Assembly: GCA_964514005.1 (NCBI GenBank)
Contig: CAZEOW010000003.1
Span: 1 to 26,733 of the forward strand
Source: an uncultured Nautiliales bacterium
Lineage (GTDB): Bacteria > Campylobacterota > Campylobacteria > Campylobacterales > Nautiliaceae
Length of the DNA stretch: 26,733 nt
Direction of reading: 5' to 3'
Positions 1,401 through 19,557 of the stretch are shown piece by piece. The position numbers and the translations under genes were made by a program. Within the stretch, counting starts at the first letter, position 1, and the number at the start of each line of letters is the position of its first letter. The notes beneath the pieces were generated by a model that was given only the letters and a program-made list of their open reading frames with translations, searched no databases and had not been told where the DNA came from.

Positions 1401-2345
1401 TTATTTTATTGTTGAAAAAATTTTATATGATTTTTTTCTTTTACCATTAGAGTTTATTACTCCCCAATATTTTTCTGCTTGTTTAAAATATCCTGTATGA
1501 TTAGGATTATCTATAAAATTAAAAAAATTAAATCCTATTAAGTTAGCCCCATTTTTGAAAATTGGTATTAGTTTTTTAAATTCTTTTAATACATAGCTTT
1601 GAAGGTTAGTTTTATAGCTTGAAATAGCTAAATATGCTAGAAAAGTTGGTTTTTTATACTTTTTATTTAAGTATAAAGCAAATGCAAGTGCTCTTAGGGG
1701 AGTATTTTTTATCTCTTTTATATTATTTCTTGTTATTGCTCTCATTTCTTGAAAAGCTATAAAGTCACTTATTTTAGCACTCTCTTTCATTGAAGGAGAA
1801 TATAAATTCCAGTTATATTCATCCCATATTTTATTGTAATCTCCAAAATCTCCTAAACATATTCCAACTAAAGTGTTTTTATCTTTTAAAAGTTTTATTG
1901 ATTTTACTTGTAATTTATCAAATTGTTTTGAAGAGGCCATATTGTTTTCGTTATATTCTGGATTGATTATAACAATTTTTTTGCCTTTAATTTTTTTTAA
2001 AAAATTTTTAAATTTTTTTAATTTAGCAAAATACTCTTTTTTATGTTTTTTTACAAATTCTGGTGAAATTTCATCTGCAAAGTAATAAAAAATAAAAATA
2101 GGAGTAAATCCTTTTTTAATTGCTTTATTAATTGTTTTAGCCGGATACCAAAACTCTTTCCAATCTCTTGTGATCCAAATAGAAAATGAGTTTACATTTT
2201 TTGGAGTAATTTTATAAATAGGAATTCTATCTTTATAGGAGCATTTTTTATAAAAGGCTTTATTTTTGCAAACAGTAAATCCTCCAACTCCAATATAAAA
2301 AGCAAAACTAAATGAAAAAGAGAGTATTAATAATAATTTACTCAT
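1401..2345 (-). CDS. Secreted (beta/alpha)8 glycoside hydrolase-like protein, clan GH-A-like
   Basis: Signal peptide MSKLLLILSFSFSFA; IIINPEYNE acid/base-like motif; KPTFLAY strand; C-terminal AEKYWGVINSNGKRKKSY resembles the E..fGl...dg..K motif. ATG 2345 is preferred; the track start 2351 is TTG. Confidence 0.65.
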   Translation of the reverse strand: MSKLLLILSFSFSFAFYIGVGGFTVCKNKAFYKKCSYKDRIPIYKITPKNVNSFSIWITRDWKEFWYPAKTINKAIKKGFTPIFIFYYFADEISPEFVKKHKKEYFAKLKKFKNFLKKIKGKKIVIINPEYNENNMASSKQFDKLQVKSIKLLKDKNTLVGICLGDFGDYNKIWDEYNWNLYSPSMKESAKISDFIAFQEMRAITRNNIKEIKNTPLRALAFALYLNKKYKKPTFLAYLAISSYKTNLQSYVLKEFKKLIPIFKNGANLIGFNFFNFIDNPNHTGYFKQAEKYWGVINSNGKRKKSYKIFSTIK

Positions 2346-4107
2346 AATCAATTATAAGGGAAATTGTGGATTTTGGATAAAGTTTTTTAATTCTAACATC
2401 TATAAACCTTTCTTTTTTATTGATGTTTATAATTTTTATTTTTGTTTTTAATACTTCAGGGGCAATGTGTTTAATTTTTACATTTGGATAATATATCCTA
2501 AAAGTAAAATTATCTATATCTACTTCGTTATCGTTAGAAATACCTATAAAAATCTTTTTTTCTGTAATTGTATCTATATGAAGTGAAATATTCTTTAAAA
2601 GTTTTGCTCTTTTGGCTATATCTTTTCCTTTTAGAGTTGGAATTTTTTGTTGTTTTAAAAATTTAAAATACTCTTTTAATATATGAATATTTTCTGGAGC
2701 ACTTAAAAGATGAGTATGAACACTTAGAGTGTATAATGTATTAAGAGATGTTAGTAATTTAGTCTCTTTTTTTATATGATCTAATATTTGCTTATCGTTG
2801 AAATTGTATTCAATAAGATATAAATAATCATCTGTTCCATGACGAGGAAGTAAAACAAAATTATCTATTATTGTTGGTTGCAAAGAAGGAATAGATTTTG
2901 CCATAACATATAAGTAATTGGCTTTTTTAATGTATTCTTTTATGATATTATTAATTTCCTCTCTTGGAGGTCTAAAACCTAAAACTTCTTTTTTAGTTAT
3001 TTTTTGTAAAATATTTTTAGATGCGATTATTTCTTGAGAAGCGTTTTTATTATTAATTTTAGAATGAGAAAAACTATGAGAAGCTATTTCTATATTCTTA
3101 AAAGAAGATGCTTTTTTTGTAATTTTTTTATGTTCTTGAGCAAGTTTTGCTACACAAAATAGAGTTGTATTTATATCATACTCTTTTGCTAATTTAGCAA
3201 AATTTATCATATTTTTATATTTATATTCTGTATCTTCTGATATAAAAACGGCCATTTTTTTATCTAAAAAAGGATATTTTACAAGAGTAATGGGATTTTT
3301 GAAATAGCTAAATATATTTTTAAAAATTGTATTAAAAGTTTTTTCACTCATATCTAAAAATGTGTATGCTGGAGTATTGAAATAAAACCATTTTCCTTTT
3401 TTATAAAATCCGTGCCATAAAATCCCTGCTTTTTTTACATTTAAATGTTTTGGAGTATCGGTAAGTGCCCAATTAGTAAGTGCTAAATCGGGAGTTTTTG
3501 TGAATAAATCTATATAATCATTTCCATAAAGAGTAATGAAAGAGGTTTTTAAGTTTTCTGCTTTTGCAATAGGGGATAGAAGCTTATATGTAAAAAAAGA
3601 TAAATCTTTTTTATAGAGTTTATAATCAGTTGACTTTAGATTAGTAAGATTTATTAAATATAGATTATTTGTAGGAATTAAATTTTCATTAAAATATCCA
3701 AAGTGGTAATTAAATATTAAATTCCCCCCTTTTTTTAAAAATTCTTGAATTTTAAAAAAAGTTTCTCTGCTTAATACATAATTATCGGGAATTATTAAAA
3801 TATCTTTTTTGGAAAGTTGCCTAATTTCATTAGGATATATAGTTTTTGTATTAAATCCTAATGTTTGGATTCTTTGTTGGAATTTTTCAAATACTCTATT
3901 GTAATTGTTTAATAATCCGTTCTTTTCTAAATATAAATCGTTTAATTGAGTTTTTAAAAAATATATATTCTGTTTAGGAGGTTGAAAAAAGCTAAAATTA
4001 TCATTTTTAGGAAGTATTTGATATAAAACATAACCAGAAATAGTAATCATTATAAATACTGATAAAAAAACAAAAAGAGGGTAGGTATATCTATTCGAAA
4101 AAGACAT
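2338..4107 (-). CDS. Membrane-anchored polysaccharide deacetylase (CE4/NodB-like) with an N-terminal class-I GATase-like domain
   Basis: N-terminal TM; ILIIPDNYVLS...FLKKGGNLIF (GATase/GH42-middle-like); VFISEDTE (motif 1 variant), EIASHSFSH (HxxxH), GFRPP and LSVHTH. AGGAG SD at 4114-4118. Confidence 0.85.
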   Translation of the reverse strand: MSFSNRYTYPLFVFLSVFIMITISGYVLYQILPKNDNFSFFQPPKQNIYFLKTQLNDLYLEKNGLLNNYNRVFEKFQQRIQTLGFNTKTIYPNEIRQLSKKDILIIPDNYVLSRETFFKIQEFLKKGGNLIFNYHFGYFNENLIPTNNLYLINLTNLKSTDYKLYKKDLSFFTYKLLSPIAKAENLKTSFITLYGNDYIDLFTKTPDLALTNWALTDTPKHLNVKKAGILWHGFYKKGKWFYFNTPAYTFLDMSEKTFNTIFKNIFSYFKNPITLVKYPFLDKKMAVFISEDTEYKYKNMINFAKLAKEYDINTTLFCVAKLAQEHKKITKKASSFKNIEIASHSFSHSKINNKNASQEIIASKNILQKITKKEVLGFRPPREEINNIIKEYIKKANYLYVMAKSIPSLQPTIIDNFVLLPRHGTDDYLYLIEYNFNDKQILDHIKKETKLLTSLNTLYTLSVHTHLLSAPENIHILKEYFKFLKQQKIPTLKGKDIAKRAKLLKNISLHIDTITEKKIFIGISNDNEVDIDNFTFRIYYPNVKIKHIAPEVLKTKIKIININKKERFIDVRIKKLYPKSTISLIIDYE

Positions 4108-4267
4108 ACTTTTCTCCTAATTCATTTAAAACATCTTCATAAGTTAATTCTTTTTTTGTTTTCTTTCTTTCTCTAGCTTTGTATAAAAAGTAAGCTATTA
4201 CTCCAAATATTAAAGTAAGCAGGGTTATTATTAAAATAAGCATTGATAAAAAACTTAAAATATTCAT
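4091..4267 (-). CDS. Small single-pass membrane protein, 58 aa; candidate PgaD/IcaD-like synthase partner
   Basis: Hand translation: MNILSFLSMLILIITLLTLIFGVIAYFLYKARERKKTKKELTYEDVLNELGEKYVFFE*. ATGA overlap with the GT2 stop, AAGGA SD upstream, 17-nt overlap with the deacetylase start. Below the ORF-track length cutoff. Confidence 0.8.
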   Translation of the reverse strand: MNILSFLSMLILIITLLTLIFGVIAYFLYKARERKKTKKELTYEDVLNELGEKYVFFE

Positions 4268-5589
4268 AAATTTCCTTTTCTATCTAATTTCCCCCAGCTC
4301 ATTTTTACACCAAACCACTCTTCAAATGTAGATAATATTTTAGCAAGATTTATCACTTGAATAAAAAATAATCTATAATATATAGCATAAAATGCTAAAC
4401 TTAATTTATCTCCTGTTACTAATATACAAAACAAAGCTCCAGCAATATCTACTATTGTAAACATTACCCACCAGTAAAACATTAATATACTATACCCAGA
4501 TACCATAGCACTATATAAAATAAACATATTAGCCCATAAATCCATAAAGGGCCAAAAAATTGCTTCAAACAGCATATACCACATTGTAAAAGATGCGGCT
4601 ATATTGCCTCTCCATTTCCATAAAAGTTTTTTATGTTTTCTAATAGCCTGTAATATTCCCCTTGTCCATCTATATCTTTGTTTTATTAAGTTTAATAATT
4701 CTTCTGGAGCTTCTGTATAGGCTACTGCATCGGGTTCAAAATCGATTTTATAACCTTTAGATATAAGCTTTAATGTAACATCACAATCTTCTGCAAATGT
4801 ATCATCATCATATAAGCCTACTTCAATTAATGCATTTTTTCTAAACATTCCAATAGGACCGGGAATTATATTTACAAGTTTTAAAAAAGCCTGACCATTT
4901 CTTACCATATTAAGCCCTTCTAAATACTCAAGGGCTTGAAGTTTTGTCCATAGGTTATTTTGATTGCTTACATAAACTGAACCGGCTACTGCGGCTATGT
5001 CTTCATCTTCAAAATGGGTTACCATTAAAGCTACTGCATCTTTATCAAGTTTTGAATCAGCATCAACTACCATTATTAAATCGCCCTCCGCTCTTTCTAT
5101 ACCATAATTAATCGCCATAGCTTTTCCACCATTTTTTTTTCTAAATACTCTAATCTCTTTTTTAGGGTGATTTTCATATCTTTTTGCAATGGAGTATGTT
5201 TTGTCTTTTGAACCATCATCAATTACTATAATTTCTAAATTTTGATAAGTTTGTTGAGTAAGAGATTCTATTGATTTTGCAATTACAACTTCTTCATTAT
5301 ATGCAGGAACTATTATACTTACTTTTAAAGATGTGTTTTTATTTATCTCTTTTTCTGAATTAATAGCTATTTTAATTATTGAAAAAAATAAAAGTAAAAA
5401 GTATCTTAAAATAATTAGGGTAGTAAAAAATAGAATTAATATCATTCCGGCTTTTGCAAAAATATTTTGGATATTGTAAAAAGTCTGATAAAAGTGAAAA
5501 AGCGTATAACCAAGTCCTGTTATTAAAATAAAACTTAAAAATATAATAACAGGAAGTTTTACCAAACTTTTAATATTTCTAATAAACAT
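4264..5589 (-). CDS. Processive GT2 synthase, PgaC/IcaA/MatB-like (poly-beta-1,6-GlcNAc synthase-like)
   Basis: Two N-terminal and several C-terminal TMs; DDGS (124-127), NGGKA, DAD (176-178), AED, QRYRW (304-308); C-terminal WGKLDRKG; no PilZ domain, so not BcsA. Confidence 0.88.
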   Translation of the reverse strand: MFIRNIKSLVKLPVIIFLSFILITGLGYTLFHFYQTFYNIQNIFAKAGMILILFFTTLIILRYFLLLFFSIIKIAINSEKEINKNTSLKVSIIVPAYNEEVVIAKSIESLTQQTYQNLEIIVIDDGSKDKTYSIAKRYENHPKKEIRVFRKKNGGKAMAINYGIERAEGDLIMVVDADSKLDKDAVALMVTHFEDEDIAAVAGSVYVSNQNNLWTKLQALEYLEGLNMVRNGQAFLKLVNIIPGPIGMFRKNALIEVGLYDDDTFAEDCDVTLKLISKGYKIDFEPDAVAYTEAPEELLNLIKQRYRWTRGILQAIRKHKKLLWKWRGNIAASFTMWYMLFEAIFWPFMDLWANMFILYSAMVSGYSILMFYWWVMFTIVDIAGALFCILVTGDKLSLAFYAIYYRLFFIQVINLAKILSTFEEWFGVKMSWGKLDRKGNL

Positions 5590-8500
5590 TCTATACTTTC
5601 ATAATCATTAGTATTAGTTGTGTTTGAGCTGTTTGAAAAACTACAACCGGTTTTAAATATTTTATTTTTATAAAAAGCTGATATTTTATATAAATTTTTG
5701 CTATCAAAAAAACTATATCCTATAGCACCTTTTAATGTTAAGTAATTTTTTTGATATTTTATCCCTATAAAATTTGAATCTGTCTTTTTAGGAGAATAGT
5801 AGCAACTATTTTTTGAGTTAAATTGATACCATCCTTCAGCAAACATTGTAAATGGAAATGATTCATAAAAGTCATAATAAAATTGAGGAGTAAAAACATT
5901 ATTTTTATTGTTTACATACTCATATGCTAAGCTATACCACAAATCTCTAATAGGAGAAATTTGATTAAAGTATGAAATTTCAGCTTTAATTCTGTTGTAT
6001 TTAATAGAACAGATACTTTTTCTTGAATATGCTAAATTATGTTTATTTATTCTAAAAGTGTATTTGTTAAAATATTCAATATCCCATCCTACCATTTTTT
6101 CAATATCATAAAAAATATCTATTAAGAAGTTTTTATTTTTATATCCTATACCGTAGTAGTAACTTTTATGGTTTTGGTTATTTTGAGTTAGATTATATCC
6201 TCTAATTAACCCAAAAATATTTTTTCCCGCTGTTAAATAGTAAGTTGTCATATCAGTTTTTTGATTATCTTTGAAGTAGTTTAATTTAAAATTTAAAAAA
6301 TAATTTTTTAAAGTTTTTATTACTACTATACTTTTTTTAGGTTGAGTTTTTTTAGGAGTTGTTTTAATGGGTTTAATTATTTTTTTAGGAGGTTTTTTTA
6401 TAGTAATTTTTTTAATAAGAGGTTTTTTTATAATATTTTTATGTGAAACTACTTTTTTTGATTTAGATTTTTTAGCTTCAATAGCTTTTAAATTTTCTAA
6501 TATATATTTTTTTAAAGAGTTTTCTTTTTTAAATGGAACATATTTGCCTTTTTCCCAACTTTCTCTAATAATTTTACACTTTTTTTCGCATTTAATATAT
6601 AAAGTTTTATATCCTTTATCTTTTTTTCTTTTAGATGCAAATACTTGGTAAAACTTTACTATATATACATTTTTTCTTTTTTCTAATAATATAGGGTCAT
6701 ATATTCCTACACTTATAAAATAGGAGTTTTTAAATAGAGCCTGTTTTCTTAATACCCATCCTAAATTATTAGTATAATTTTTTCCATAAAATTTTGAATA
6801 CTCTCTAAAATTCATACTCTCCCAAGCTTTTTTCCAATTATTTAAAAACTCTTTTAAAGAATTAGGAAGAGGTTTTGGCATTTGAGAGAGAAGTTTTTTA
6901 TATATTTTTTTTGCCTCTTCTATTTTTCCGGATTTTTGAAGAGAATAAGCATAGTTATACTCAATAGTAGGAGTTTTTTTATACCACATTAAAAGATAAA
7001 ATTCTCCTGCTGCTTTAGCGTATTGTTTTGAGTATTCTAATGTATAAGCATATTTTTCATGAACATCATAATCATCAGGATTATATGATAGATACATCTT
7101 ATAATAATCTGCAGCTGTTGCATAATTATTTGAAAAATAGGCTCTATCTCCTAAAATAAGTAGCTTTTTACTTCTGTTGTTAAAATATTCATCTATTGTA
7201 GCAGCAGTGCTTGAAGTTACAAAATTGGGAGATATTTTTAATATTTTTGCTTTTAAAATGGCAGCTTTTTTATAATTGGGATATTTATTTAATAATTGAT
7301 TTAATACTCTTAAAGCTTCTTTATTAAAACCATTCCAATAGTATCTTTTTGCAAGTTCTAAATAAGCTTCTTTTGTGTTTTTATAGTTTGCATAATATTC
7401 CCAATTTCCAAAACCTTTATAATAATTTTTTAATTCAAGATATATATCTCCTAAAGTTTTATAGATTTGAGCATTTTCAGGGTGAAGTTTCAAATATCTT
7501 TCATAATAATAAGCTGATTGCTGATAATTTTTTATCATATAATAAAAATCTGCTAATTTTAATAAATACTCTTCATTAGCAGGGTCTTTTTTAAGAAGTT
7601 TTTTATATTTTTTTATAAGTGGAGCGATATTTTTATTTAAAATCATTAAACTCTCTTTTGCATCTTCGTCAAATGGATTTTCTTTTAATACCTTTTTAAA
7701 CATACTTTTTGCTTTTTTCTTATTTCCTTGCCACATTTGAATGTAAGCCAACATTTTATAAGCTTCATATTTTTCTTTTTTATTGCCGTGTTCTAAAACA
7801 TCACTTAAATAGATTGTAGCTTGATAATATTTTCCTTCCCATGCAAGGATTTTTCCAAGTAAAAGTTTTACTTTTGGATTATTTGTGTGTTGAAGTTTTT
7901 TTAAATATTCTAAAGCTTCTTTATTATTTCCACTCCAACTTAGAAGTTTTGCAAGTAAAATTTTTGCATTGTCATTATGGGGATTTTTATTAATAAAATC
8001 CTGAACTAATAATACTGCTTTTTTATGATTTTGTTGGAATAAAGCAAAAGCAAGTGCTTCTAAATTTTTGTAAGATGGGTCTTTTTTATAGGCTTCTTCT
8101 AAATTTTTAATAACTCTTTTTTTAGCTTCTTCGATTTTTTTAGAATATTTTTGGGTAAATTTTTTATCATATTTTGTAATTTGTTTAAGCAGTTTTTCAG
8201 CTTTGTTATACTCTCCTAAATAATAGTATATTTCAATTAGCTTTTTTGCATAGTCTAATTTAAATGAAGAGTAATAGAGTAATTTAAAATAGTTTTTTGC
8301 TTCTTTATATTTTCCAAGATAATATAAATTATAAGCTTTTATTTCAAAATAATCTATACTTTTTTTGTTTTTTATTTTAGATAGAACAAAAAGAGAGTCT
8401 TTATATTTTCCTTCCCACATCAACACTCTTGCTATTTTTATTTTTGAATCATCAGTTAAAGAGTCTATTTTTTTTATTGCATTAAGAGCATAAAAGAATT

Positions 8501-8828
8501 GTAAAAGCTTTTTATATTTTCCTTTTTCGTAAAAGTAAGAGACTGTATTATTTGGATTTTTGATTAAATATTTTTTATAAATAAAAAAAGATTCTATTTG
8601 TCTTTTTAATTTTTTTGCTATTTTATTTTTTTTATCTATTTTTAAAACTTTTTCTATATATTTTTTAGCTTCTTTATAATTTCCTTTTTGAATATAATAT
8701 TTTGCTAATAAAAGGCGGTTTTTTGTATCGTATTTGTGAGTTTTTACATATTGGATTAAACCTTTTACATCAATATTTAAAGCAAAAAGAGGAATAAAAA
8801 ATAAAAGCAGCAATACTCTTATTTGCAT
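5559..8828 (-). CDS. Outer-membrane polysaccharide export protein: signal peptide, TPR scaffold, NTF2-like domain, K/P-rich linker, C-terminal beta-barrel (PgaA/BcsC/PelB functional class)
   Basis: MQIRVLLLLFFIPLFA signal (ATG 8828 preferred over 8846); many TPRs with recurrent LA..L.W.G; about 250 C-terminal residues of alternating aromatic strands including CYYSP, ending in Trp. Confidence 0.78.
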   Translation of the reverse strand: MQIRVLLLLFFIPLFALNIDVKGLIQYVKTHKYDTKNRLLLAKYYIQKGNYKEAKKYIEKVLKIDKKNKIAKKLKRQIESFFIYKKYLIKNPNNTVSYFYEKGKYKKLLQFFYALNAIKKIDSLTDDSKIKIARVLMWEGKYKDSLFVLSKIKNKKSIDYFEIKAYNLYYLGKYKEAKNYFKLLYYSSFKLDYAKKLIEIYYYLGEYNKAEKLLKQITKYDKKFTQKYSKKIEEAKKRVIKNLEEAYKKDPSYKNLEALAFALFQQNHKKAVLLVQDFINKNPHNDNAKILLAKLLSWSGNNKEALEYLKKLQHTNNPKVKLLLGKILAWEGKYYQATIYLSDVLEHGNKKEKYEAYKMLAYIQMWQGNKKKAKSMFKKVLKENPFDEDAKESLMILNKNIAPLIKKYKKLLKKDPANEEYLLKLADFYYMIKNYQQSAYYYERYLKLHPENAQIYKTLGDIYLELKNYYKGFGNWEYYANYKNTKEAYLELAKRYYWNGFNKEALRVLNQLLNKYPNYKKAAILKAKILKISPNFVTSSTAATIDEYFNNRSKKLLILGDRAYFSNNYATAADYYKMYLSYNPDDYDVHEKYAYTLEYSKQYAKAAGEFYLLMWYKKTPTIEYNYAYSLQKSGKIEEAKKIYKKLLSQMPKPLPNSLKEFLNNWKKAWESMNFREYSKFYGKNYTNNLGWVLRKQALFKNSYFISVGIYDPILLEKRKNVYIVKFYQVFASKRKKDKGYKTLYIKCEKKCKIIRESWEKGKYVPFKKENSLKKYILENLKAIEAKKSKSKKVVSHKNIIKKPLIKKITIKKPPKKIIKPIKTTPKKTQPKKSIVVIKTLKNYFLNFKLNYFKDNQKTDMTTYYLTAGKNIFGLIRGYNLTQNNQNHKSYYYGIGYKNKNFLIDIFYDIEKMVGWDIEYFNKYTFRINKHNLAYSRKSICSIKYNRIKAEISYFNQISPIRDLWYSLAYEYVNNKNNVFTPQFYYDFYESFPFTMFAEGWYQFNSKNSCYYSPKKTDSNFIGIKYQKNYLTLKGAIGYSFFDSKNLYKISAFYKNKIFKTGCSFSNSSNTTNTNDYESIECLLEILKVW

Positions 8829-10120
8829 ATTTTTGTCTCTTCCCATTCAAATGCTTCTATAATATCCGCTTTTGATATATACAATTTTTCAAAAATTGGT
8901 TTTAAATTCCCTTTTCTTACATTAATTAAAACTACATAATAAAATTTTCCATCAAAATATATAATATCTTTATTTCTTAATTTATCGGCTATTTTTTCTA
9001 AATTAAGTTCAGATGTAAATTTAATTAAAGTAAATACAATTCTTTCTAAATATAATGAATTAATAATTTTGCAAAAATTTTCTAATGAATTTGCAATTTT
9101 ATTTTTAGGAAATTTATTTAATAAAGATGTATAAAAGTGAAACTTTATAAGTTTTTCGACTTCTAAAATGTATTCTCCTATTAAAAATTTATTTGGTAAT
9201 ATATCTTCGCATCCTTCTTTAATTGCAAGCATTTTATCTTCTACTCTTACATACTCTTTATTTACTATATATAAAATCTTTGAATCTATTTTTTCTTTCA
9301 TTTTACATATACTTATATCTAATCTATCTGAATTATAAATGACAATATGAGGATTTTCTAAAATTTTTGAAATTACATCCGAAGTGTTTGTAGCAATTTT
9401 TAATTCAAACATAGGTTTATCAAAAATATACCTGTTTAAATTGAGTAGATTTTTGTCTTGCGATACTATTAAAATTTTCTTTTTATTGATAGAGACTTTT
9501 TTTTCTTTTGAATCTGAAAGGTTTAATCTCTCTCCATTGTATAAAAATTGACACTCTTCATATCTTATAGGAAAAATAGAGTGTTTAATAGATAATATTC
9601 TTTGAGATGTTCTTTTTACTATTAAATTTAAATCACTAAAATTTTCCATTATTTCTATACAGGAAGTATTGTCTTTATTGGGAACTGCTGTTATCCATAG
9701 TTTTATTTTTCCTTTTATTTCTATTAATTCTTCCATAAAAGGTTTAACTTCTTCTATATCCGAAATTGAAAATAAAAGGTCAATTCTTTGAAAGATTAAA
9801 ATATCAGGATTAAAAGTTTTAATTATTCTTTTTAGATCTTCTAACAAAAACTTATATCCAAATTGAATTTTAAAGTCTTCCCAATTCTCTTTTAAATTTA
9901 AATATTCTAATTTTTTAATAGTTTGTTGCAGTTTTTCATCTTTTATAAAAGAAATTGCTTTTAATCTTTTTTCAAAAATTTGTTTAGGATAAGCGGATAA
10001 AATTAAAACTTTTGCTTTTTGTCTTGAAATTTCAAATAAACTAAAAGTTAATTTTCCAACTTTTTTACTCCCTTCTATTAAAATTATATCAGATTGTTGT
10101 AATGCATCATGTATTGTCAT
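8819..10120 (-). CDS. BcsE-like protein: degenerate RecA/KaiC-like domain, degenerate receiver, degenerate GGDEF with intact I-site
   Basis: GSKKVGKLT (Walker A-like, aa 17-25); KKILIVSQD...PHIVIYN receiver lacking the phospho-Asp; RVED (292-295); LRNKDIIYFDGKFYYVVL (RxxD 382-385, GGDEF lost). AAGGA SD. Confidence 0.7.
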   Translation of the reverse strand: MTIHDALQQSDIILIEGSKKVGKLTFSLFEISRQKAKVLILSAYPKQIFEKRLKAISFIKDEKLQQTIKKLEYLNLKENWEDFKIQFGYKFLLEDLKRIIKTFNPDILIFQRIDLLFSISDIEEVKPFMEELIEIKGKIKLWITAVPNKDNTSCIEIMENFSDLNLIVKRTSQRILSIKHSIFPIRYEECQFLYNGERLNLSDSKEKKVSINKKKILIVSQDKNLLNLNRYIFDKPMFELKIATNTSDVISKILENPHIVIYNSDRLDISICKMKEKIDSKILYIVNKEYVRVEDKMLAIKEGCEDILPNKFLIGEYILEVEKLIKFHFYTSLLNKFPKNKIANSLENFCKIINSLYLERIVFTLIKFTSELNLEKIADKLRNKDIIYFDGKFYYVVLINVRKGNLKPIFEKLYISKADIIEAFEWEETKICK

Positions 10121-11957
10121 TTAATTCCTTTAATTGATTCTCAAATACCTTTACAAGAGGCGATTTTTCATATTTTAATACTTTTATTATCAATATAATA
10201 GCCTCTTTATTGTAAGGGTCTTTTTCTAAAACTTTATAAAGGTATTTTTTTGCCTTTTTATACTCTTTTAAGTAAAAATAGTCTTTTGCTATTACAAGAT
10301 AACTTTCGCTATTTTTTAAAATATCTAAACTTTTTTTAAATTTTTTTAAATTAAATAAGATTTCTCCTAAAACAGATTTAGTCTCTTTATTAGGATTTAA
10401 GTTATATGCTATATTGGCAAAATTTAAAGCCTCTTTTGGAGAAGATAATTTAGCTTTTAATAAATAAGGTTTATAAGAAGCTTTATTTATTGTTTCTAAA
10501 CTTTTTTCTATATATGTTTTTGCAAGAGGCAGATTTTTTTCTTTATAAGCTTTTAGGGCTTTTTTGTAATTTGTTAAAGAGAGATATTTTATAGTTTTTG
10601 GTTTTGAAAACAAATTGTTTTTTATTGCTTGAATTTTAATATACCACCATCCATCGTTAAGCTCGCTTAAAGAAAAATATTTTTTAGAAGTTTTATATCT
10701 TAAAATAGGAGTTTTTATAAATTTTTTATCTCTACTGATAGTAATTACAAACTTTTTATAAGGACTTGTCCATTTTAATATATTTTCTATTTTTAACTCT
10801 TTAACAGGAAGAGGAAGTATTGTTTTAATAATCTCTCCATTCTTTGTATAAAAACCTTCATTTTCTTTTATTTTAATTTTATCTGTTGTAATTGCCCCGC
10901 TATACACACTTGTAGCTAATGTTTTTTCGTTTTTTATTACTTCAAAATCTGTTCCGTAATTTTTTATTTTATTATTTTCTGCTATTATTTCTACTTTGTT
11001 GTTATTAGTAATAAATTCAGCATCAGCTTTTTTTATAATAATCTTATTTTTAAAATTTGTTGAAAATAAATTTTTATAAGCTCTTATTTCTAACTTATCA
11101 TTTTTATAAGTCTTTATTATTACATTGTTTTCAAGTTTGTATATTTTCATATTATTTGAACTGCCAATATCTATTTTTTGGGGAAAAAGACAGTAAAAAT
11201 AATCTATTGAAAACAATAGAACAATCGTAACAGTTGATAAAGCAGCGGCAAGTCTTTTTATTCTTATAATTTTTGCTGTTTTTGGAAGATATATAAAAAA
11301 ACTTGTTCCTTCTTTCTCTTTACTCTCTACAGCAATTGAACCTCCTAATTTTTCTATTACCACTTTAGTTAAATTAAGTCCAATTCCACTCCCTTCTTTT
11401 TTATCAGTTGTATAATATTTTTTAAATATTTTTGTTATTTCTTCTTTGCTAATTCCTTCTCCCGTATCTTTTATAGAAATTAAATAACCGCTTTTTTCTT
11501 TTTCTACTTTTATAAAAACAACACCTTTGTATTTATTATATTTTATAGCATTATGCAAGAGATTAAAAAAAGCCTTTTTTAACCACTCTTTATTAGCAGT
11601 AATAGGAAGCTTTTCGTGTTTAAAAACTATTTCTATCTCTTTTCTTTCAATATCGCTTTTTAACTCTTCTAAAATCTCCCATATTAACTCATTTAAATTA
11701 AATCTATGATTTTTTAATTTACTTCTTTTATATCTTTCAACTTCAATAAAATCTTTTAACATCTCAATAACTATATTAAGATTGGTTTTTATATTTCTTA
11801 AAAGTTCTTCTTTTTTCTCTTTTGGAATCTTTTTTTCTAAAATGGAAACTGAAAATTTAATACTTGCAAGTTTATTTTTTATATCGTGATAAAAAACATG
11901 TGCAAAAGGTGTTTTTTTTTTAACATTATTCTCCCCCTTTTCTAAAAATATATCCAA
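10107..11957 (-). CDS. Histidine kinase with inverted architecture: HisKA-HATPase, TM, FecR-like, FN3-like, TPR
   Basis: H-box YHDIKNKL, N-box NLLHNAIKY, G1 KDTGEG, G2 GSGIGL; TM aa 236-258; YGTDFEV...SVYSG (FecR-like); GWWYIKIQAI (FN3-like). The track start 11957 is a weak TTG; a stronger ATG at 11926 is out of frame. Confidence 0.85.
   Translation of the reverse strand: MDIFLEKGENNVKKKTPFAHVFYHDIKNKLASIKFSVSILEKKIPKEKKEELLRNIKTNLNIVIEMLKDFIEVERYKRSKLKNHRFNLNELIWEILEELKSDIERKEIEIVFKHEKLPITANKEWLKKAFFNLLHNAIKYNKYKGVVFIKVEKEKSGYLISIKDTGEGISKEEITKIFKKYYTTDKKEGSGIGLNLTKVVIEKLGGSIAVESKEKEGTSFFIYLPKTAKIIRIKRLAAALSTVTIVLLFSIDYFYCLFPQKIDIGSSNNMKIYKLENNVIIKTYKNDKLEIRAYKNLFSTNFKNKIIIKKADAEFITNNNKVEIIAENNKIKNYGTDFEVIKNEKTLATSVYSGAITTDKIKIKENEGFYTKNGEIIKTILPLPVKELKIENILKWTSPYKKFVITISRDKKFIKTPILRYKTSKKYFSLSELNDGWWYIKIQAIKNNLFSKPKTIKYLSLTNYKKALKAYKEKNLPLAKTYIEKSLETINKASYKPYLLKAKLSSPKEALNFANIAYNLNPNKETKSVLGEILFNLKKFKKSLDILKNSESYLVIAKDYFYLKEYKKAKKYLYKVLEKDPYNKEAIILIIKVLKYEKSPLVKVFENQLKELNDNT
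11912..11921 (-). repeat. A10 homopolymer in the first codons of the histidine kinase
   Basis: Ten T on the plus strand. Minus strand reads GGGGGAGAATA-ATG-TT-A10-CACC. It is the longest run I noticed in the window. Confidence 0.9.
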
Positions 11958-12582
11958 GCTCTCTTTTATTTATAATTAAATCTTTTTTTCCAAGTTTTTC
12001 TCTTAATCTTTTTACCAAAACATTTAAAGTATTTTTTGGAACATATTCTTGCCATATGTGAGATATGATAAAATCAGAACTTAAAATCTTTCCTTCATTA
12101 TTTAAAAATAATTCCAATAAATCACTTTCTCTTCTTGTAAGATTGATTACTTTTGCTTTTTTTATTAAAAGTTTTTCTTCATAGTTATACTTAATATCAT
12201 CGTCTATATAAATAATTTTTTTAGGTTTAAAAATTTTATTAATTCTCAAAATTATTTCTTCATAATCAAACGGTTTTTTTATAAAATCTTCTGCACCAAG
12301 CTCAAAGGCTTTTTTTATATTTTCTATTTCAGTATGACTTGACATAATAATAATTTTGTATCTTTCAAAGATTTGAAAATGTTTTTTCATCTCTTCTAAA
12401 AAATTCCCATCAGGTAAAGTTATATCAGCCAAAATCAAATCAGGATCTATTTTTTCAAAGTTTTGTAAAAACTCTTTAAGGGTATAATATGAATATATTC
12501 TAAACTCTTCTGCTTCAAGAATTAAACTTATAGCATAATTTAAATCTTTTTCGTCTTCTAGGATAACTATCTTCAACTTCAC
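11926..12582 (-). CDS. OmpR/PhoB-family response regulator
   Basis: ILEDE acidic pocket, DLILADITLPDG phospho-Asp, KKPF, winged-helix LTRRE...LNVLVKRLREKL...GY. GTG start at 12582 or TTG at 12576. Confidence 0.93.
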   Translation of the reverse strand: MKLKIVILEDEKDLNYAISLILEAEEFRIYSYYTLKEFLQNFEKIDPDLILADITLPDGNFLEEMKKHFQIFERYKIIIMSSHTEIENIKKAFELGAEDFIKKPFDYEEIILRINKIFKPKKIIYIDDDIKYNYEEKLLIKKAKVINLTRRESDLLELFLNNEGKILSSDFIISHIWQEYVPKNTLNVLVKRLREKLGKKDLIINKRELGYIFRKGGE

Positions 12583-13298: not shown

Positions 13299-15008
13299 TT
13301 GAAGAGTATTATAGATTTTTTAGAAGACCCTAAAAAGACAAAAATTTACGAAGTATTAAATGTAAGTGATGAAGAATTGGTTATTTTGCAAAGGATGGTG
13401 GAAAGTTATTTAGATGAAATTGAAGATGTAAAAGTAAGGTCATTGCTCTCTTTTATTTTTGGAGAAGAGAAAATAGAACTTTTAAAAAAAGTTAAATATA
13501 TTAAAAATCTTATAGATGAAGGTTGGCTTGTTTTAAGTGTTTTTGGAGATGTAAAAAGCCATAATGTTACATCTCTTGAACTTTTTAATTCATCTGTTTC
13601 TCTCTCTGTTACTTTTTTAAAACTTTTAGAAGAGGGAAATCTGGATATTATAGTGCCTGAAAAAACACCTTATGAAGAACATTTAGAATATCTGCACGAT
13701 GAATTTTTAAGAATAGAGATTTATGAACAGATAGCTAACTTTTATCACAATAATTCTAATCATAAAGAAACAGCCAATATAAAAAGACTTCAAAGTAAAT
13801 TAAAACTAATAGAAAACACTATAAAAGACAGAATTAAACTTACTCTTATAGATTTGCCTGTTAGAAATTTTATTATAGAAAAGGAATTGAGTGAAGAAGA
13901 AGAGATTTTATTTTTAGCTCTTTTAAAAGAAGAATTTATTGGAAATAATGAAAAAATAAGAGACCTAAACTATCTTTTAAACCTTATTAGTCATGATGAA
14001 ATAGAGAGAATTAAAAACAGAACCCTCTTAGATGATAACTCCAAACTTATTAGTGAAGGTATTTTTGATTACGATGAAGTTTTTGGAATGTTAGGAAATG
14101 GATATACAAAAATATTTATGTTAAATGAAGAAATTTTAAATGAGTTTGCCCATCCAAGAATAAAGAAAAAAACAGAATCTATTGTAAAAGAGACTATTTT
14201 TGAAATAATTGAACCAGAACAAGGATTAGATGAAATAGTTTTACCTAAAAAAACAAGGGATATGCTTGATATTTTATTAAAACAGATAGATAAAAGAGTT
14301 TTAAAACTTTTAAAAGAGTGGGGTATTAAGAAAAGCTCTGATGTAGAAGCCAAAATTATATTTTATGGAGCTCCCGGAACCGGTAAAACTATTACAGCAT
14401 ATGCAATAGCAAAAGAGCTTAAAAAACCTATTTTAAGTTTAGACTCAAGTAAAATACTCTCTATGTATGTTGGTGAGAGTGAAAAAAATGTGAGAAAAAT
14501 GTTTGATGATTACTATCATATCAGTGAAAAATTAAAAACAAAACCAATTTTACTTTTAAATGAGGCTGATCAATTTTTTAGCGTAAGAACAACAGGGGCA
14601 ATTAGTAGTGCTGATAAAATGCATAATCAAATGCAAAATATTTTCCTTGAACAACTTGAAAAGTTTGATGGAGTTTTAATAGCTACTACTAATTTACTCG
14701 AAAATATAGATGCGGCATTTTCAAGAAGATTTGAATATAAAATAGAGTTTACAAAACCAAATTATAAAGATAGGAAAAAAATATGGGAGATAAAATTGCC
14801 TAAAAATGCCCCTTATGAAGAAAATTTTGATGTTTCTAAATTAGCAAAATATGACTTAACAGGAGCACAGATAGAAGTAATCATAAAAAATACAGCCTAT
14901 AAAGTAGCACGAAGAAAAAAACCGCTTTTTAAAGTAGAAGATTTTATAGAAGAGATTAAAAAAGAAAAAGAAAACTCTTTTGACGCTGAAAAAGAAGTAG
15001 GTTTTTAA
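13299..15008 (+). CDS. AAA-family ATPase (Campylobacterota Cj0377-like)
   Basis: FYGAPGTGKT Walker A, LLLNEAD Walker B variant, TTNL sensor, AFSRRF arginine finger. TTG start after AGGAGAGAGG. Confidence 0.9.
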   Translation: MKSIIDFLEDPKKTKIYEVLNVSDEELVILQRMVESYLDEIEDVKVRSLLSFIFGEEKIELLKKVKYIKNLIDEGWLVLSVFGDVKSHNVTSLELFNSSVSLSVTFLKLLEEGNLDIIVPEKTPYEEHLEYLHDEFLRIEIYEQIANFYHNNSNHKETANIKRLQSKLKLIENTIKDRIKLTLIDLPVRNFIIEKELSEEEEILFLALLKEEFIGNNEKIRDLNYLLNLISHDEIERIKNRTLLDDNSKLISEGIFDYDEVFGMLGNGYTKIFMLNEEILNEFAHPRIKKKTESIVKETIFEIIEPEQGLDEIVLPKKTRDMLDILLKQIDKRVLKLLKEWGIKKSSDVEAKIIFYGAPGTGKTITAYAIAKELKKPILSLDSSKILSMYVGESEKNVRKMFDDYYHISEKLKTKPILLLNEADQFFSVRTTGAISSADKMHNQMQNIFLEQLEKFDGVLIATTNLLENIDAAFSRRFEYKIEFTKPNYKDRKKIWEIKLPKNAPYEENFDVSKLAKYDLTGAQIEVIIKNTAYKVARRKKPLFKVEDFIEEIKKEKENSFDAEKEVGF

Positions 15009-15134: not shown

Positions 15135-15473
15135 ATGGGAACAGTCTTAATTTATGCAGCTGGTATTTTAGCTGGAATTTTTTTGCTTTATTTAATTGGT
15201 ATTAGTGTAGCCCCTTTTAATCCAAGTGATATTAAAAATGATCACTTTGAGTGTGGGCTTCCACCAAGTTCTGAAGTTCCTATGAAAGCGAACTTTGGAT
15301 ATTTTATTTTTGCAATTGCTTTTATTGTTTTTGATATGGCAGGGTTGTTTTTTAGTCTATTTGTATTTGCTGATAGTAAAGAGGCTTTAAATTGGGCAAT
15401 GGTATTTGGGATACTTTTATTTGCCGCTATTACTATTTCGATGAAGGAGTATAGAAATGCTAAAGATTCTTGA
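15135..15473 (+). CDS. nuoA: Complex I-like subunit A
   Basis: Three TMs, HFECG loop, FIVFD motif. Confidence 0.88.
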   Translation: MGTVLIYAAGILAGIFLLYLIGISVAPFNPSDIKNDHFECGLPPSSEVPMKANFGYFIFAIAFIVFDMAGLFFSLFVFADSKEALNWAMVFGILLFAAITISMKEYRNAKDS

Positions 15474-15930
15474 TTTTTTTAATTATGCAAGAAGTAAATC
15501 ACCTTGGATAGTGCACTTTTGTAGTGGATGTTGTTCTCTTGAGATACTTGCGGCAATGGGACCAAGATATGATTGGGAAAGGTATGGATATATAATGACA
15601 CCAACTCCAAGACAAGCAGATATTATCTTTATTACCGGATTAGTTAGTAAAAAAATTTTACCGGCTCTTCTTAGAACTTATGAACAAATGCCAGAGCCAA
15701 GATATGTAGCAGCAATAGGAGCTTGTGCTTATGATGGAGGCCCTTATAATGATAGTGTTTCAGTTATCAAAAATATGACAGAGATTTTGCCTGCAGATAT
15801 ATTTGTAGCAGGATGTCCTCCAAAACCTGAAGCAATTATTGCTGGTCTTGAAGAGTTAAAAGAAAAAATTAAAAGAGGGGAGCCAAGTGCATCAAGCCAA
15901 GGCGGCCTTTGGAAACAAATGAAATTTTAA
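15457..15930 (+). CDS. nuoB: Complex I-like subunit B (N2 cluster)
   Basis: GCCSLE, YDWERYG, PRQAD, MPEPRYV, IGACA, GCPPKPEA. Confidence 0.93.
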   Translation: MLKILDFFNYARSKSPWIVHFCSGCCSLEILAAMGPRYDWERYGYIMTPTPRQADIIFITGLVSKKILPALLRTYEQMPEPRYVAAIGACAYDGGPYNDSVSVIKNMTEILPADIFVAGCPPKPEAIIAGLEELKEKIKRGEPSASSQGGLWKQMKF

Positions 15931-15933
15931 GGG

Positions 15934-17589
15934 ATGACAATGGAGAGAATTAAAGAGATACTTAATAAATTTGATATGGAGTATGTTGAAGATTATAAAC
16001 AAAAATGGGTAAAAGCTAAATTAAAAAATAAAGAAGATTTATTAAATGTAGTTAAAGCTTTAAAAGAAGAGGGAGTTAGGACCTGTTCTACTGTATCTCC
16101 TACAGATTTTATTGATGAAAATAAAATAGAAGTAAATTATTTTCTAGAAGATTTAAGAAATAGAAGAAATATTTGGTTAAAAGTTGATATAGATAGAGAA
16201 CTTGATAAATGTGAAATTGATTCAATTACTCCTTTATTTCCAAGTGCTGATTGGCATGAATTAGAAGCTTATTCTACTTATGGAGTGAAATTTAAAGGTC
16301 ATCCAAATTTAAGATATTTCTTAATTAGCAGAGATTATTATGGGAAATTTCCATTTAGAAAAGATTTTGAGTGGAAAGAGCATGAAAAAAATTTAATAGA
16401 AAATGTAAACTCTATTACAGAAGAGTTTTTAGAAGAGTATGAAGAACATGAAAAAACAATGGGACATGAGGAAAGTAAAACAGTTCTTCACTGGGGTCCT
16501 ACTCATCCAGCAAGTGGTCCTATGAGATTAAAAGTTTATATAGATGGTGAAAATATTAAAAAAGTAGAGCCAGATATAGGATATGTTTGGAGGGCATTAG
16601 AACATTTAGCAGAGAGAAAAGATTTTATAGGAACAATAGTAGCAGTTGAGAGAATTTGTTTTATGGATAATCCAAATCCTATGATTTGTTATTCTCAAGC
16701 AGTAGAAGAAATTGCCGGAAAAGAGATTACAGAATTTGCTAAATATATGAGAGTTATCCTAGGAGAGACAGGAAGAATAGCTTCTCATTTAATTTCCCTT
16801 GGTGGATTTTTTGGCACAATGGGGCTTGCAACATTTTTAATGTGGAATTTAGATGTTAGAGAGTATTTTCTTGATGTTTTAGAAGAGTATAGTGGGGCAA
16901 GAATTGCAACTGCATGTGTAGAACCAGGTGGTGTAAGATATCCTTTAGAGGATGCAGAAGCTTGGTTTAAGAAAATTGAAGAAGCAATTGAAAAGTGGGA
17001 ATCTGTTAAAAAAGATATAGAAGATATATTTATAAATAACCCTCTTATGACTGTAAGAGCAAAAGGAGTAGGAGTATTTACACAAGATGATGTAGAAGAA
17101 TTTTATTTAGCAGGTCCTATTGCAAGAAGTACAGGCTTTAAAACCGATGTAAGAATTGATGAACCTTATGCAGCTTATGCAGATTTAGATATAGATTATG
17201 TTACATGTGAAAGTGGAGATACAAGAGATAGACTTTATATAATCTATAAAGAGATTAATCAATCAATTGATTTAATTAAACAAGCTATTGCAAAAATTAG
17301 AGCAGGAATTGAAGCAGGTGAAATGGACCCTAAAAAAGACCATCTTGTAAAAATGCCAAAAAGACTTCCAGCAGGTGAAGCGGTAAATAGAATTGAATGG
17401 GCAAGAGGAGAGATTTTAATGCATCTTGTAACAAAAGATAAAGCTACAAGTCCTTACAGACTTAAAATTAAAGCCCCAAGTGTAAATCATACAATGGTTC
17501 TTGATAAGTTATTAAGTGGAAAAACATTATCAGATATTCCACTATTTTATGGAAGTATGCATATTTGTCAGGGTGACTTAGATAGATAA
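15934..17589 (+). CDS. nuoCD: Complex I-like fused subunit C/D (no complete NiFe-binding motifs)
   Basis: NuoC part ADWHELE...FKGHPNLR...PFRKDF; NuoD part WGPTHP, GYVWR, EWARGE, RLKIKAPS, GDLDR. The real start may be ATG 15940. Confidence 0.9.
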   Translation: MTMERIKEILNKFDMEYVEDYKQKWVKAKLKNKEDLLNVVKALKEEGVRTCSTVSPTDFIDENKIEVNYFLEDLRNRRNIWLKVDIDRELDKCEIDSITPLFPSADWHELEAYSTYGVKFKGHPNLRYFLISRDYYGKFPFRKDFEWKEHEKNLIENVNSITEEFLEEYEEHEKTMGHEESKTVLHWGPTHPASGPMRLKVYIDGENIKKVEPDIGYVWRALEHLAERKDFIGTIVAVERICFMDNPNPMICYSQAVEEIAGKEITEFAKYMRVILGETGRIASHLISLGGFFGTMGLATFLMWNLDVREYFLDVLEEYSGARIATACVEPGGVRYPLEDAEAWFKKIEEAIEKWESVKKDIEDIFINNPLMTVRAKGVGVFTQDDVEEFYLAGPIARSTGFKTDVRIDEPYAAYADLDIDYVTCESGDTRDRLYIIYKEINQSIDLIKQAIAKIRAGIEAGEMDPKKDHLVKMPKRLPAGEAVNRIEWARGEILMHLVTKDKATSPYRLKIKAPSVNHTMVLDKLLSGKTLSDIPLFYGSMHICQGDLDR

Positions 17590-17598
17590 GGAGTGAAA

Positions 17599-18570: not shown

Positions 18571-18571
18571 G

Positions 18572-19090
18572 ATGTTATTTCAAATAGCTGAAAAAGTTAC
18601 AAAAGTTTTTAAATCTGTAACAGAACCAAGAATAGCAACAAAAGATGTTGTAAAAGATCCAGCACATAAATCTCAGATTTTTAGAGGAAAACATCAAATT
18701 AAATATGATTTATGTATAGGATGTGATGCTTGTAATAAAATTTGTCCTGTTGATGCAATTGTAATGAAAAAATTACCTATTAAAAAACCAAGAATTATTC
18801 CTGAAGTAAATCTTGCTATTTGTATTTTTTGTGGATTATGTGAGGATGTTTGTCCAACAAAACCAGAAAAAGCAATTAAATTAAGCGGTGGTGATATAGA
18901 AATGATTGCAGGTGGAACTCATGAAGATTTAACAAACTTTTGGGTAAGAGTAGATGTGCCAGAAGAGTGGATTGAAAAAAAGAAAAAAGAGGAAGAAGAA
19001 AAAGCTAGAAAAAAAGCTGAAGCTCTTAAAAAGAAAAAAGAGGCTGAAGCTGCTAAAAAAGCTGCTGCTAATAAAGGAGAGGGAAAATGA
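18572..19090 (+). CDS. nuoI: Complex I-like subunit I (2x[4Fe-4S]) with charged C-terminal tail
   Basis: CIGCDACNKICP and CIFCGLCEDVCP. Confidence 0.92.
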   Translation: MLFQIAEKVTKVFKSVTEPRIATKDVVKDPAHKSQIFRGKHQIKYDLCIGCDACNKICPVDAIVMKKLPIKKPRIIPEVNLAICIFCGLCEDVCPTKPEKAIKLSGGDIEMIAGGTHEDLTNFWVRVDVPEEWIEKKKKEEEEKARKKAEALKKKKEAEAAKKAAANKGEGK

Positions 19091-19554: not shown

Positions 19555-19557
19555 AAA

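Follow-up and report, generated by a model that had tools for sequence, protein, structure and literature searches.

A BcsE-like, putative c-di-GMP sensor encoded in a Pga-like exopolysaccharide gene cluster of a Nautiliales bacterium

The window analyzed here, a stretch of 26,733 nucleotides from an uncultured Nautiliales bacterium (family Nautiliaceae, phylum Campylobacterota; contig CAZEOW010000003.1), contains a run of eight same-strand genes with overlapping or abutting ends. One of them, an open reading frame (ORF) at 8819..10120 of the minus strand, begins with ATG and encodes a protein of 433 amino acids, which an initial annotation had described as a tripartite BcsE-like receptor for c-di-GMP (cyclic dimeric guanosine monophosphate) outside a cellulose operon. 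The ORF coordinates in that annotation were right, and the initial methionine was kept in 60 of 65 relatives. No Pfam or NCBIfam family matched the protein, in the case of Pfam even at E<=10, and a phmmer search against the PDB returned weak receiver matches and nothing else. An AlphaFold model of the whole protein had a mean predicted local distance difference test score (pLDDT) of 86.5 and a predicted TM-score (pTM) of 0.52.

Three domains were distinguished, all read from the minus strand. An N-terminal RecA/KaiC-like domain of approximately residues 1-205 (9506..10120) includes a Walker-A-like loop, G17-SKKV-G22-K23-L24-T25 (10046..10072). It is followed by a degenerate receiver without a phospho-acceptor Asp, REC* (approximately residues 211-325; 9146..9490), in which an RxxD motif, R292-V-E-D295 (9236..9247), stands at the start of helix alpha4. 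The remainder, residues 326-433 (8822..9145), consists of a linker with F329-Y330 and a truncated GGDEF-fold domain, GGDEF*, that carries a second RxxD motif, R382-N-K-D385 (8966..8977). The motif positions proposed earlier hold for this strand, as codons 382-385 of RNKD fall at 8977..8966 and codon 292, the start of RVEDKMLAIKEGCEDILP, falls at 9247. The proposed order of a RecA/KaiC-like domain, a pseudo-receiver, and a GGDEF remnant was likewise upheld by the AlphaFold model with Foldseek, by the receiver profile, and by a model of the last domain alone.

A word-indexed search identified 14 relatives, from Nautilia, Caminibacter, and metagenome-assembled genomes (MAGs), and 229 matches were returned when 1.84 billion cluster representatives were searched exhaustively with a profile. 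Approximately 82 of these, with E<1e-10, had the same length and architecture, while ordinary receivers were found below them, and the size of the family was about 80 clusters at 50% identity. Two proteins that seemingly spanned both C-terminal domains (P0106 and P0124) were discarded as REC-PAS-kinase or REC-kinase proteins. Besides Nautilia lithotrophica, Caminibacter sp., Nitrosophilus labii, a Sulfurospirillum MAG, and MAGs of Campylobacterales and Nautiliaceae, the family was also present in Desulfurobacterium sp. TC5-1 of the Aquificota. Public annotations of these relatives read 'hypothetical protein', 'response regulator', or 'CheY-like'. Occurrence in Campylobacterota and Aquificota, and not in Gammaproteobacteria or Betaproteobacteria, agrees with the spread to another phylum that had been predicted from the window protein.

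An alignment of 65 representatives, which were 14-43% identical to the window protein, had a mean column identity of 27%. Only seven of its columns reached a conservation of at least 90%, namely M1, F117, R292, D295, Y330, R382, and D385. Both RxxD motifs were near-invariant: R292 was found in 62 and D295 in 61 of the representatives, R382 and D385 each in 64, and two members of the Desulfurobacterium type had KxxE in place of the first motif. The linker residues F329-Y330 were also near-invariant. RxxD occurs exactly twice in the window protein, against 0.74 occurrences expected from its composition. While one or two such motifs per protein are unremarkable, R382, D385, R292, and D295 ranked 1, 2, 4, and 5 in conservation among all 433 columns, and a placement in four of the five most conserved columns is far beyond chance.

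A profile of the family searched against the PDB matched receivers and, weakly, KaiC, while no BcsE and no GGDEF structure was matched. The receivers of NtrC and PhoP were found at E 1e-6 over approximately residues 213-325, and the position of the phospho-acceptor was occupied by Y262/N263, with Asp there in only 5 of the 65 relatives. The remaining signature residues of receivers, those of the acidic pocket, the Thr/Ser, and the beta5 Lys, were not conserved across the relatives either. The reading as a receiver without its phospho-Asp is thus well founded, by the fold of the profile matches and by the residues at the acceptor site.

BcsE, to which the protein had been compared, belongs to the type II cellulose secretion systems of E. 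coli and Salmonella, is classified as Pfam PF10995 (CBP_BcsE), and was earlier named a 'GIL domain' protein; its hosts are Gammaproteobacteria and Betaproteobacteria. Its domains follow the order NTPase-like, REC*, and GGDEF*, with an inactive N-domain (PMC7439463), and the RxxD motif of its REC* has been described as without earlier precedent in a REC fold (PMC7840130). The peptide of BcsE that had been quoted in the initial annotation, RATDERLLLACGANMVIP, was exact: it occurs verbatim in BcsE of E. coli K-12 at residues 306-323, and its gap-free match to the window protein includes 5 identities in 18 positions (R, D, L, G, P). Local spacing was the same in both proteins, with 11 residues from the Lys that opens beta4 to the Arg of the REC* motif and 14 residues from its Asp to the Pro after beta5.

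When residues 326-433 were modelled alone, the pLDDT was 91 and the pTM 0.82. In the Foldseek search with this model, 12 of the 17 top PDB matches were BcsE chains over the GGDEF* region (TMq 0.54-0.64, root-mean-square deviation 3.5-5.2 Å), led by 6ybb, 9fo7, 6tj0, and 6ybu, while the other five consisted of four canonical GGDEF domains (TMq 0.41-0.49) and one unrelated fold. The best E-value was only 7e-3 because the domain is small. Alignment of the family profile to a genuine Hpt-REC-GGDEF cyclase placed RNKD on the RQTD I-site of the cyclase, which sits just before its GGDEF (probability 94%, E 1.5e-7). These structural matches and this alignment corroborate a GGDEF remnant with RNKD. The E. 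coli BcsE counterpart, RTGD, is at residues 415-418, and in both proteins five residues separate the Asp of the second motif from the dead signature (GKFYY from G391 in the window protein, GNRLV in BcsE). GGDEF* comprises approximately 100 residues, lacks the C-terminal strands, and has one helix between beta1 and beta2; PF00990 (GGDEF) matched none of the 65 family members. An active diguanylate cyclase was rejected as a candidate, as the GGDEF signature is missing and the domain is truncated (approximately 100 instead of 160 residues).

A comparison of the whole-protein model with 350,542 PDB chains ranked full-length E. coli BcsE in the five best places, over approximately 480 aligned columns and with E-values from 1.7e-16 to 1.6e-14. 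These chains, 9fo7_E, 9fnn_E/U, 9fp0_E, and 9fp2_D, are from cryo-EM structures of 2024. Hence, in the structural comparison that the initial annotation had suggested, BcsE came first among the PDB matches, whether the search was made with the entire protein or with its C-terminal domain only.

At the sequence level, the 65-member alignment was compared by hhalign with an alignment of 18 enterobacterial BcsE sequences, drawn from listed sequences of at least 63% identity; the shallowness of the latter limits the profile-profile score. The alignment was colinear over 343 columns across all three domains (P 0.0055), with R292VED on R306ATD and R382NKD on R415TGD, which brings the first motif into register with I-site II of BcsE and the second with I-site I. 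The score of 29.9 exceeded those of 100 column-shuffled BcsE alignments (15.2±2.2, maximum 19.8) and of the reversed alignment (18.6). When the domains were scored separately against 40 shuffles each, values of 17.8 (shuffles 12.4±2.0) for the N-terminal domain, 20.0 (10.5±1.9) for REC*, and 17.8 (10.2±2.1) for GGDEF* were obtained, every one of them above all of its own shuffles, although the N-terminal match was weak while colinear. Against a single BcsE sequence, the hhalign match was not significant (E 0.13), though also colinear. The Pfam model PF10995 matched none of the 65 relatives at E<=0.01, whereas E. coli BcsE scored 756.7 bits in the same scan. Because it matches neither this sequence model nor the genomic definition of the family, a bcs operon with BcsQ, BcsR, and BcsF as partners, the protein is assigned to a distant sister family instead of being counted as an orthologue of BcsE.

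Altogether, a BcsE-type architecture and a relationship to BcsE are very probable. The two proteins share the domain order, the REC* RxxD with identical local spacing, the I-site RxxD of the GGDEF domain, the truncated GGDEF topology, and a gene location in a synthase-dependent exopolysaccharide (EPS) cluster that includes a short single-pass membrane peptide. In contrast, they are only 12-16% identical in structural alignments, their lengths are 523 residues in BcsE and 433 here, and the C-terminal tail of approximately 40 residues in BcsE is absent from the BcsE-like protein. The Walker A motif is destroyed in BcsE, while GxxxxGK is kept in approximately two thirds of the BcsE-like family, with Leu for Ser/Thr in the window protein. 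The operons also differ, as BcsE is encoded in bcsRQAB/EFG and the BcsE-like protein beside a PgaC-like synthase and a deacetylase without BcsQ or BcsR, and so do the hosts, which are Gammaproteobacteria and Betaproteobacteria for the former and Campylobacterota and Aquificota for the latter.

The same resemblance could have arisen by convergence, through an independent fusion of a KaiC-like domain to a REC-GGDEF protein that retained its I-site and stands in no particular relation to BcsE. Tandems of REC and GGDEF domains with I-sites are very common, and the family profile fits the Hpt-REC-GGDEF cyclase (E 1.5e-7) better than BcsE (P 0.0055). Convergence would nonetheless need to have placed a KaiC-like domain at the N-terminus in the same order, truncated the GGDEF topology in the same way, and put an RxxD at the same receiver position with identical spacing, in a protein whose best structural match is BcsE both as a whole and in its last domain. 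It is therefore considered highly improbable, and even with a convergent origin the predicted mechanism would be unchanged.

A role as a BcsE-like scaffold or assembly factor was also considered, in which the protein would organize the secretion complex at the membrane without binding c-di-GMP, an ability either lost or never acquired, and the Arg/Asp pairs would be salt bridges within the protein or to other proteins. BcsE itself has assembly roles that are independent of c-di-GMP, as its binding of BcsQ and BcsF survives mutation of the I-site (PMC7439463), and no sequence model of a nucleotide-binding domain matched the protein. Against this, the conserved residues correspond precisely to the R and D of the two I-sites of BcsE, with matching register and spacing, and one of the motifs occupies the position that is canonical for the I-site in a GGDEF fold. 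Moreover, structural salt bridges rarely outrank all core residues in conservation. A scaffold of this kind seems unlikely.

The RecA/KaiC-like nature of the N-domain, as proposed initially, was supported from three sides. KaiC was the next Foldseek match after BcsE for the whole-protein model (E 5e-11 and weaker), the family profile matched KaiC 8zn7 over the N-terminal 170 residues (E 0.007), and Pfam KaiC (PF06745) matched 5 of the 65 family members; overall, some members matched the Pfam models of KaiC, DnaB_C, or AAA. The description of its Walker A as degenerate was only partly appropriate: Leu does replace the Ser/Thr after the Lys, but the rest of GxxxxGK[ST] is intact, and the motif is only mildly degenerate. 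In an alignment at the level of the Nautiliaceae, G17, G22, and K23 were invariant, as were a Walker-B-like hhhhxRxD114 and the acidic E78 after strand 2. Across the 65 representatives, GxxxxGK was present in approximately two thirds and absent from a divergent clade with TCA, SCL, and similar residues in its place, a clade in which the two RxxD motifs and the arrangement of neighboring genes are retained. The domain resembles ATPases of the KaiC/RecA superfamily in its fold and in the positions of the Walker-A Lys and the Walker-B Asp. It differs from them in the Leu at the Ser/Thr position of Walker A, and from KaiC, which is a double-domain hexamer, in being a single such domain fused to REC*-GGDEF*.

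These features raise the alternative that the protein is primarily a working ATPase of the RecA/KaiC type, by which polymer export or complex assembly is powered or gated, with REC*-GGDEF* as a regulatory part that may sense c-di-GMP or another nucleotide. The invariance of GxxxxGK, hhhhxRxD114, and E78 in the Nautiliaceae-level alignment, the P-loop in about two thirds of the representatives, and the matches of several members to ATPase families of Pfam are in its favor. On the other hand, Leu replaces the Ser/Thr after the Walker Lys, and the equivalent domain of BcsE is inactive (PMC7439463). As a clade with the same operon has lost the P-loop and kept both RxxD motifs, ATPase activity cannot be the conserved core function, and this alternative was judged clearly improbable.

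The first gene of the operon, at 11926..12582 (minus), encodes an OmpR-type response regulator (Response_reg and Trans_reg_C), and the second, at 10107..11957 (minus), a histidine kinase (HATPase_c 3.5e-24, HisKA). The stop of the kinase gene overlaps the start of the BcsE-like gene by 14 nt. The kinase has an inverted layout, in which HisKA and HATPase are N-terminal (residues 1-230), followed by one predicted transmembrane helix (approximately residues 236-258) and a C-terminal part of approximately 350 residues with tetratricopeptide repeats (TPR) that is predicted to lie outside the cytoplasm. From the public annotations of its relatives, the BcsE-like protein might be taken for a conventional response regulator phosphorylated by the neighboring kinase. 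Its middle domain is a genuine receiver fold, its gene overlaps the stop codon of the kinase gene, and relatives bear this name in the NCBI and JGI databases. However, the acceptor Asp is missing and the acidic pocket and beta5 Lys are unconserved, the kinase is already provided with a partner of OmpR type by the same operon, and it is absent from the loci of more distant relatives. A phosphorylated conventional response regulator was rejected on account of the missing acceptor Asp, and this explanation is hardly credible.

Downstream of the BcsE-like gene, and overlapping its stop by 28 nt, starts a gene at 5559..8846 (minus) that encodes a TPR protein of 1095 residues, a putative outer-membrane export component with TPR matches in Pfam and weak matches to PgaA/BcsC in NCBIfam. 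A PgaA/BcsC/PelB-like role is putatively assigned to it. Its residues 790-850, approximately, form a long Lys/Pro-rich low-complexity linker (KKSKSKKVVSHKNIIKKPLIKKITIKKPPKKIIKPIKTTPKKTQPKK) before the C-terminal region, and its homologues have a match to Cds6_C (PF24125) in the middle. The next gene, at 4264..5589 (minus), encodes a membrane-embedded processive glycosyltransferase of family 2 (GT2) with a QRYRW motif (Glycos_transf_2 2.7e-39). The best named match of this synthase was TIGR03937 PgaC_IcaA, with 206 bits under a cut-off of 422, and it also matched NodC, cellulose synthases, and hyaluronan synthases (hyaluronan and cellulose synthases in the PDB). The domain scan of the window proteins found no PilZ domain in it, in accordance with the PilZ-less synthase of the initial annotation.

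A peptide of 58 residues, encoded at 4091..4267 (minus) by an ORF that overlaps both the GT2 and the deacetylase gene, is predicted to span the membrane once, with a basic tail in the cytoplasm whose last residues are YVFFE. It is followed by a membrane-anchored polysaccharide deacetylase of carbohydrate esterase family 4 (CE4) with 589 residues at 2338..4107 (minus; Polysacc_deac_1 1.3e-12), whose PDB matches were chitin and peptidoglycan deacetylases. While the CE4 domain is present, the PgaB equivalog of NCBIfam was unmatched, and the TPR protein matched PgaA weakly; domain content suggests a PgaB/IcaB-like role for the CE4 protein. The operon's final gene, at 1401..2351 (minus), encodes a secreted protein of 316 residues for which no match was found in Pfam, NCBIfam, or the PDB. 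Its N-terminus is signal-peptide-like, and the equivalent slot holds a glycoside hydrolase of family 8 (GH8) in two related loci (L010 and L014), so that it may be an unrecognized polymer hydrolase.

As the GT2 synthase matched PgaC/IcaA best and has no PilZ domain, the cluster is classified from its gene content as a synthase-dependent EPS system of a kind resembling poly-N-acetylglucosamine (PNAG) or chitin, not as a cellulose operon. The location outside a cellulose operon, claimed earlier, is borne out by the PgaC-like GT2, the CE4 protein, and the TPR protein of the window, in which no BcsA, BcsB, BcsQ, BcsR, or BcsG was matched.

A search for related loci with the 14-member alignment returned only three. 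Eight related loci were compared, including a contig that is 98% identical (L012), Nautilia lithotrophica (L005), Nitrosophilus labii (L011), Desulfurobacterium (L009), a 25%-identical 'Epsilonproteobacteria' MAG (L002-L004), and two members of the P-loop-less clade (L010, L013/L014); L012 was covered as far as the TPR gene, and L013 has no gene calls for the GT2 and the peptide. The BcsE-like gene adjoins the TPR protein gene and/or the GT2 gene in all eight. Where the contig reaches and the gene calls are complete, a peptide of 58-71 residues and the CE4 deacetylase follow, and after the latter comes either a protein of approximately 320 residues without a family match or a GH8 hydrolase. 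Within the clusters of these loci, no BcsA, BcsB, BcsQ, BcsR, or BcsG was found, and the BcsE-like gene was never located in a bcs operon. Among the loci compared, the two-component genes are upstream solely in those of Nautiliaceae and Nitrosophilus. In one locus of the P-loop-less clade, L010, a GGDEF-EAL gene (5439-7235) is divergent and immediately upstream of the cluster.

The small peptide was present in every related locus that covers this stretch, with a conserved Y-x-F-F-E/K tail that is placed in the cytoplasm because a basic segment follows the transmembrane helix. Alignment with E. coli BcsF by MAFFT gave 29% identity, for sequences that are too short and too dominated by the transmembrane helix to indicate homology. 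The peptide could anchor the BcsE-like protein in the manner of BcsF, or it could be a partner of the synthase resembling PgaD/IcaD. The gene order in L010 is TPR, BcsE-like, and GT2, in place of BcsE-like, TPR, and GT2. In the distant MAG, genes for a BcsQ-like ATPase and BcsC are convergent and directly after the pga-like cluster with the BcsE-like gene (L002, 19041-21452; L003, 17462-19873), so that the end of a cellulose cluster lies beside a pga-like cluster and both systems occur in one genome.

From these results, the BcsE-like protein is proposed to be a cytoplasmic BcsE-type c-di-GMP sensor that serves as a dedicated subunit of a Pga-like synthase-dependent EPS secretion system, with a probability of about 0.62. 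Its gene is translationally coupled within the operon of this window. By analogy to BcsE, binding of c-di-GMP is likely, while direct activation of the neighboring synthase is given slightly better than even odds. In BcsE, the I-site of GGDEF* alone binds c-di-GMP at approximately 2.5 µM, and with the addition of the REC* I-site an intercalated dimer is clamped at approximately 140 nM and the protein compacts (PMC7840130, PMC11470070). In the proposed mechanism, an intercalated c-di-GMP dimer would be clamped between R292/D295 and R382/D385, and the REC*-GGDEF* tandem would thereby become compact. In this form, and held at the membrane via the N-domain, the protein would then stabilize the active state of the PilZ-less synthase. 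The membrane hold might be provided by the cytoplasmic tail of the 58-residue peptide, as BcsF holds BcsE; BcsF is a short single-pass peptide whose cytoplasmic tail adds a strand to the sheet of the BcsE N-domain (PMC11470070). The upstream two-component system of OmpR type would act separately, setting the transcription of the whole operon. The genomes of Nautilia and Caminibacter contain many GGDEF/EAL genes (PMC2628731), and a precedent for an operon-encoded degenerate-GGDEF I-site receptor that activates an EPS synthase is PssE of Listeria (PMC4125290).

Several observations weigh against this proposal. In absolute terms, the sequences of the family and of BcsE are only weakly linked, with an hhalign probability of 6.6%, the window protein did not match PF10995 even at E<=10, and no GGDEF sequence model matches it. 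The TM-scores of the whole protein against BcsE are low (0.29-0.32), because the orientations of the domains differ in a three-domain protein. The REC* of BcsE shifts by 45 Å and 144° between crystal forms (PMC7840130), and in view of the low global TM-scores and the swinging domains, residues 326-433 were modelled alone. Given these low scores and the pTM of 0.52, the two RxxD motifs may, but need not, be able to face each other. BcsQ and BcsR, the partners of BcsE, are absent from the operon. Additionally, the near-canonical P-loop sequence of most family members hints at a nucleotide-dependent activity that is absent from BcsE. Finally, E. coli PgaCD binds c-di-GMP directly (PMC7112194), and since it does so without PilZ, the lack of a PilZ domain alone does not require a separate receptor. 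The E. coli PNAG system is similar to the cluster of the window in having a PgaC/IcaA-like GT2, a small membrane protein, a CE4 deacetylase, and a TPR outer-membrane protein. It differs in that its PgaC-PgaD pair binds the nucleotide with no BcsE-like subunit (PMC7112194), whereas an extra cytoplasmic sensor gene is found here; its small protein has two transmembrane helices instead of one, and the GT2 of the window is under the PgaC equivalog cut-off (206 versus 422 bits).

Besides BcsE, PelD of the Pseudomonas Pel system and YdaK of Bacillus subtilis are operon-encoded receptors with degenerate, catalytically dead GGDEF domains and RxxD I-sites that switch on an EPS synthase, presumably by relaying the c-di-GMP signal to a synthase without PilZ. 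PssE of Listeria monocytogenes is comparable to the BcsE-like protein in having a dead GGDEF domain with an RxxD I-site and in being encoded in an EPS operon, where it is presumed to relay the c-di-GMP signal to a synthase that has no PilZ (PMC4125290). All three differ from the BcsE-like protein, which is soluble, in being membrane-anchored through other N-terminal modules (transmembrane helices, or these and GAF), and in having a single I-site with neither a KaiC-like domain nor a second RxxD borne by a receiver.

BcsE has so far been treated as a speciality of cellulose secretion of the enterobacterial type, and full-text searches of an open-access library found no account of such proteins beyond cellulose systems or within operons of the PNAG type. 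To our knowledge, vent bacteria have many GGDEF/EAL genes and few known effectors. The family described here suggests that, in two further phyla, a biofilm sugar other than cellulose is probably under the control of a BcsE-type c-di-GMP sensor. If so, the dual-RxxD clamp of nanomolar type would be an old, transferable module and not a one-off, and a candidate route of c-di-GMP to PilZ-less GT2 synthases in vent bacteria would be at hand. A more tentative and rather doubtful extension is that the family represents a less-decayed relative of BcsE with an ATP-binding N-domain. Together with the 58-71-residue peptide, as a membrane anchor like BcsF, it would form a portable sensor-plus-anchor cassette that confers c-di-GMP control of high affinity through dual I-sites on unrelated synthase-dependent polysaccharide machines, and BcsE/BcsF would be the enterobacterial offshoot of an older module shared by thermophilic vent lineages across phyla. 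The natural variants of the family, with the P-loop kept or lost and with KxxE for RxxD, are suited to a dissection of the role of the BcsE N-domain. In addition, approximately 80 protein clusters that are labelled 'hypothetical' or 'response regulator' could receive new names.

Elsewhere in the window lie rsmE, a gene for an AAA ATPase, and a nuo cluster. The AAA+ ATPase, with a winged-helix domain (13299-15008, plus strand), had the anti-phage ATPase IteA as its best NCBIfam match, with 110 bits against a cut-off of 510, and it adjoins rsmE in Nautilia lithotrophica too. The nuo cluster (15135-24473, plus strand) encodes NuoA, B, a fused CD, H, I, J, K, L, M, and N, without the NADH-oxidizing module NuoE/F/G, a layout that is the same in Nautilia lithotrophica. 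Directly after nuoN, at 24473-26698 of the plus strand, a protein of 741 residues with DUF7494 and TPR repeats is encoded.

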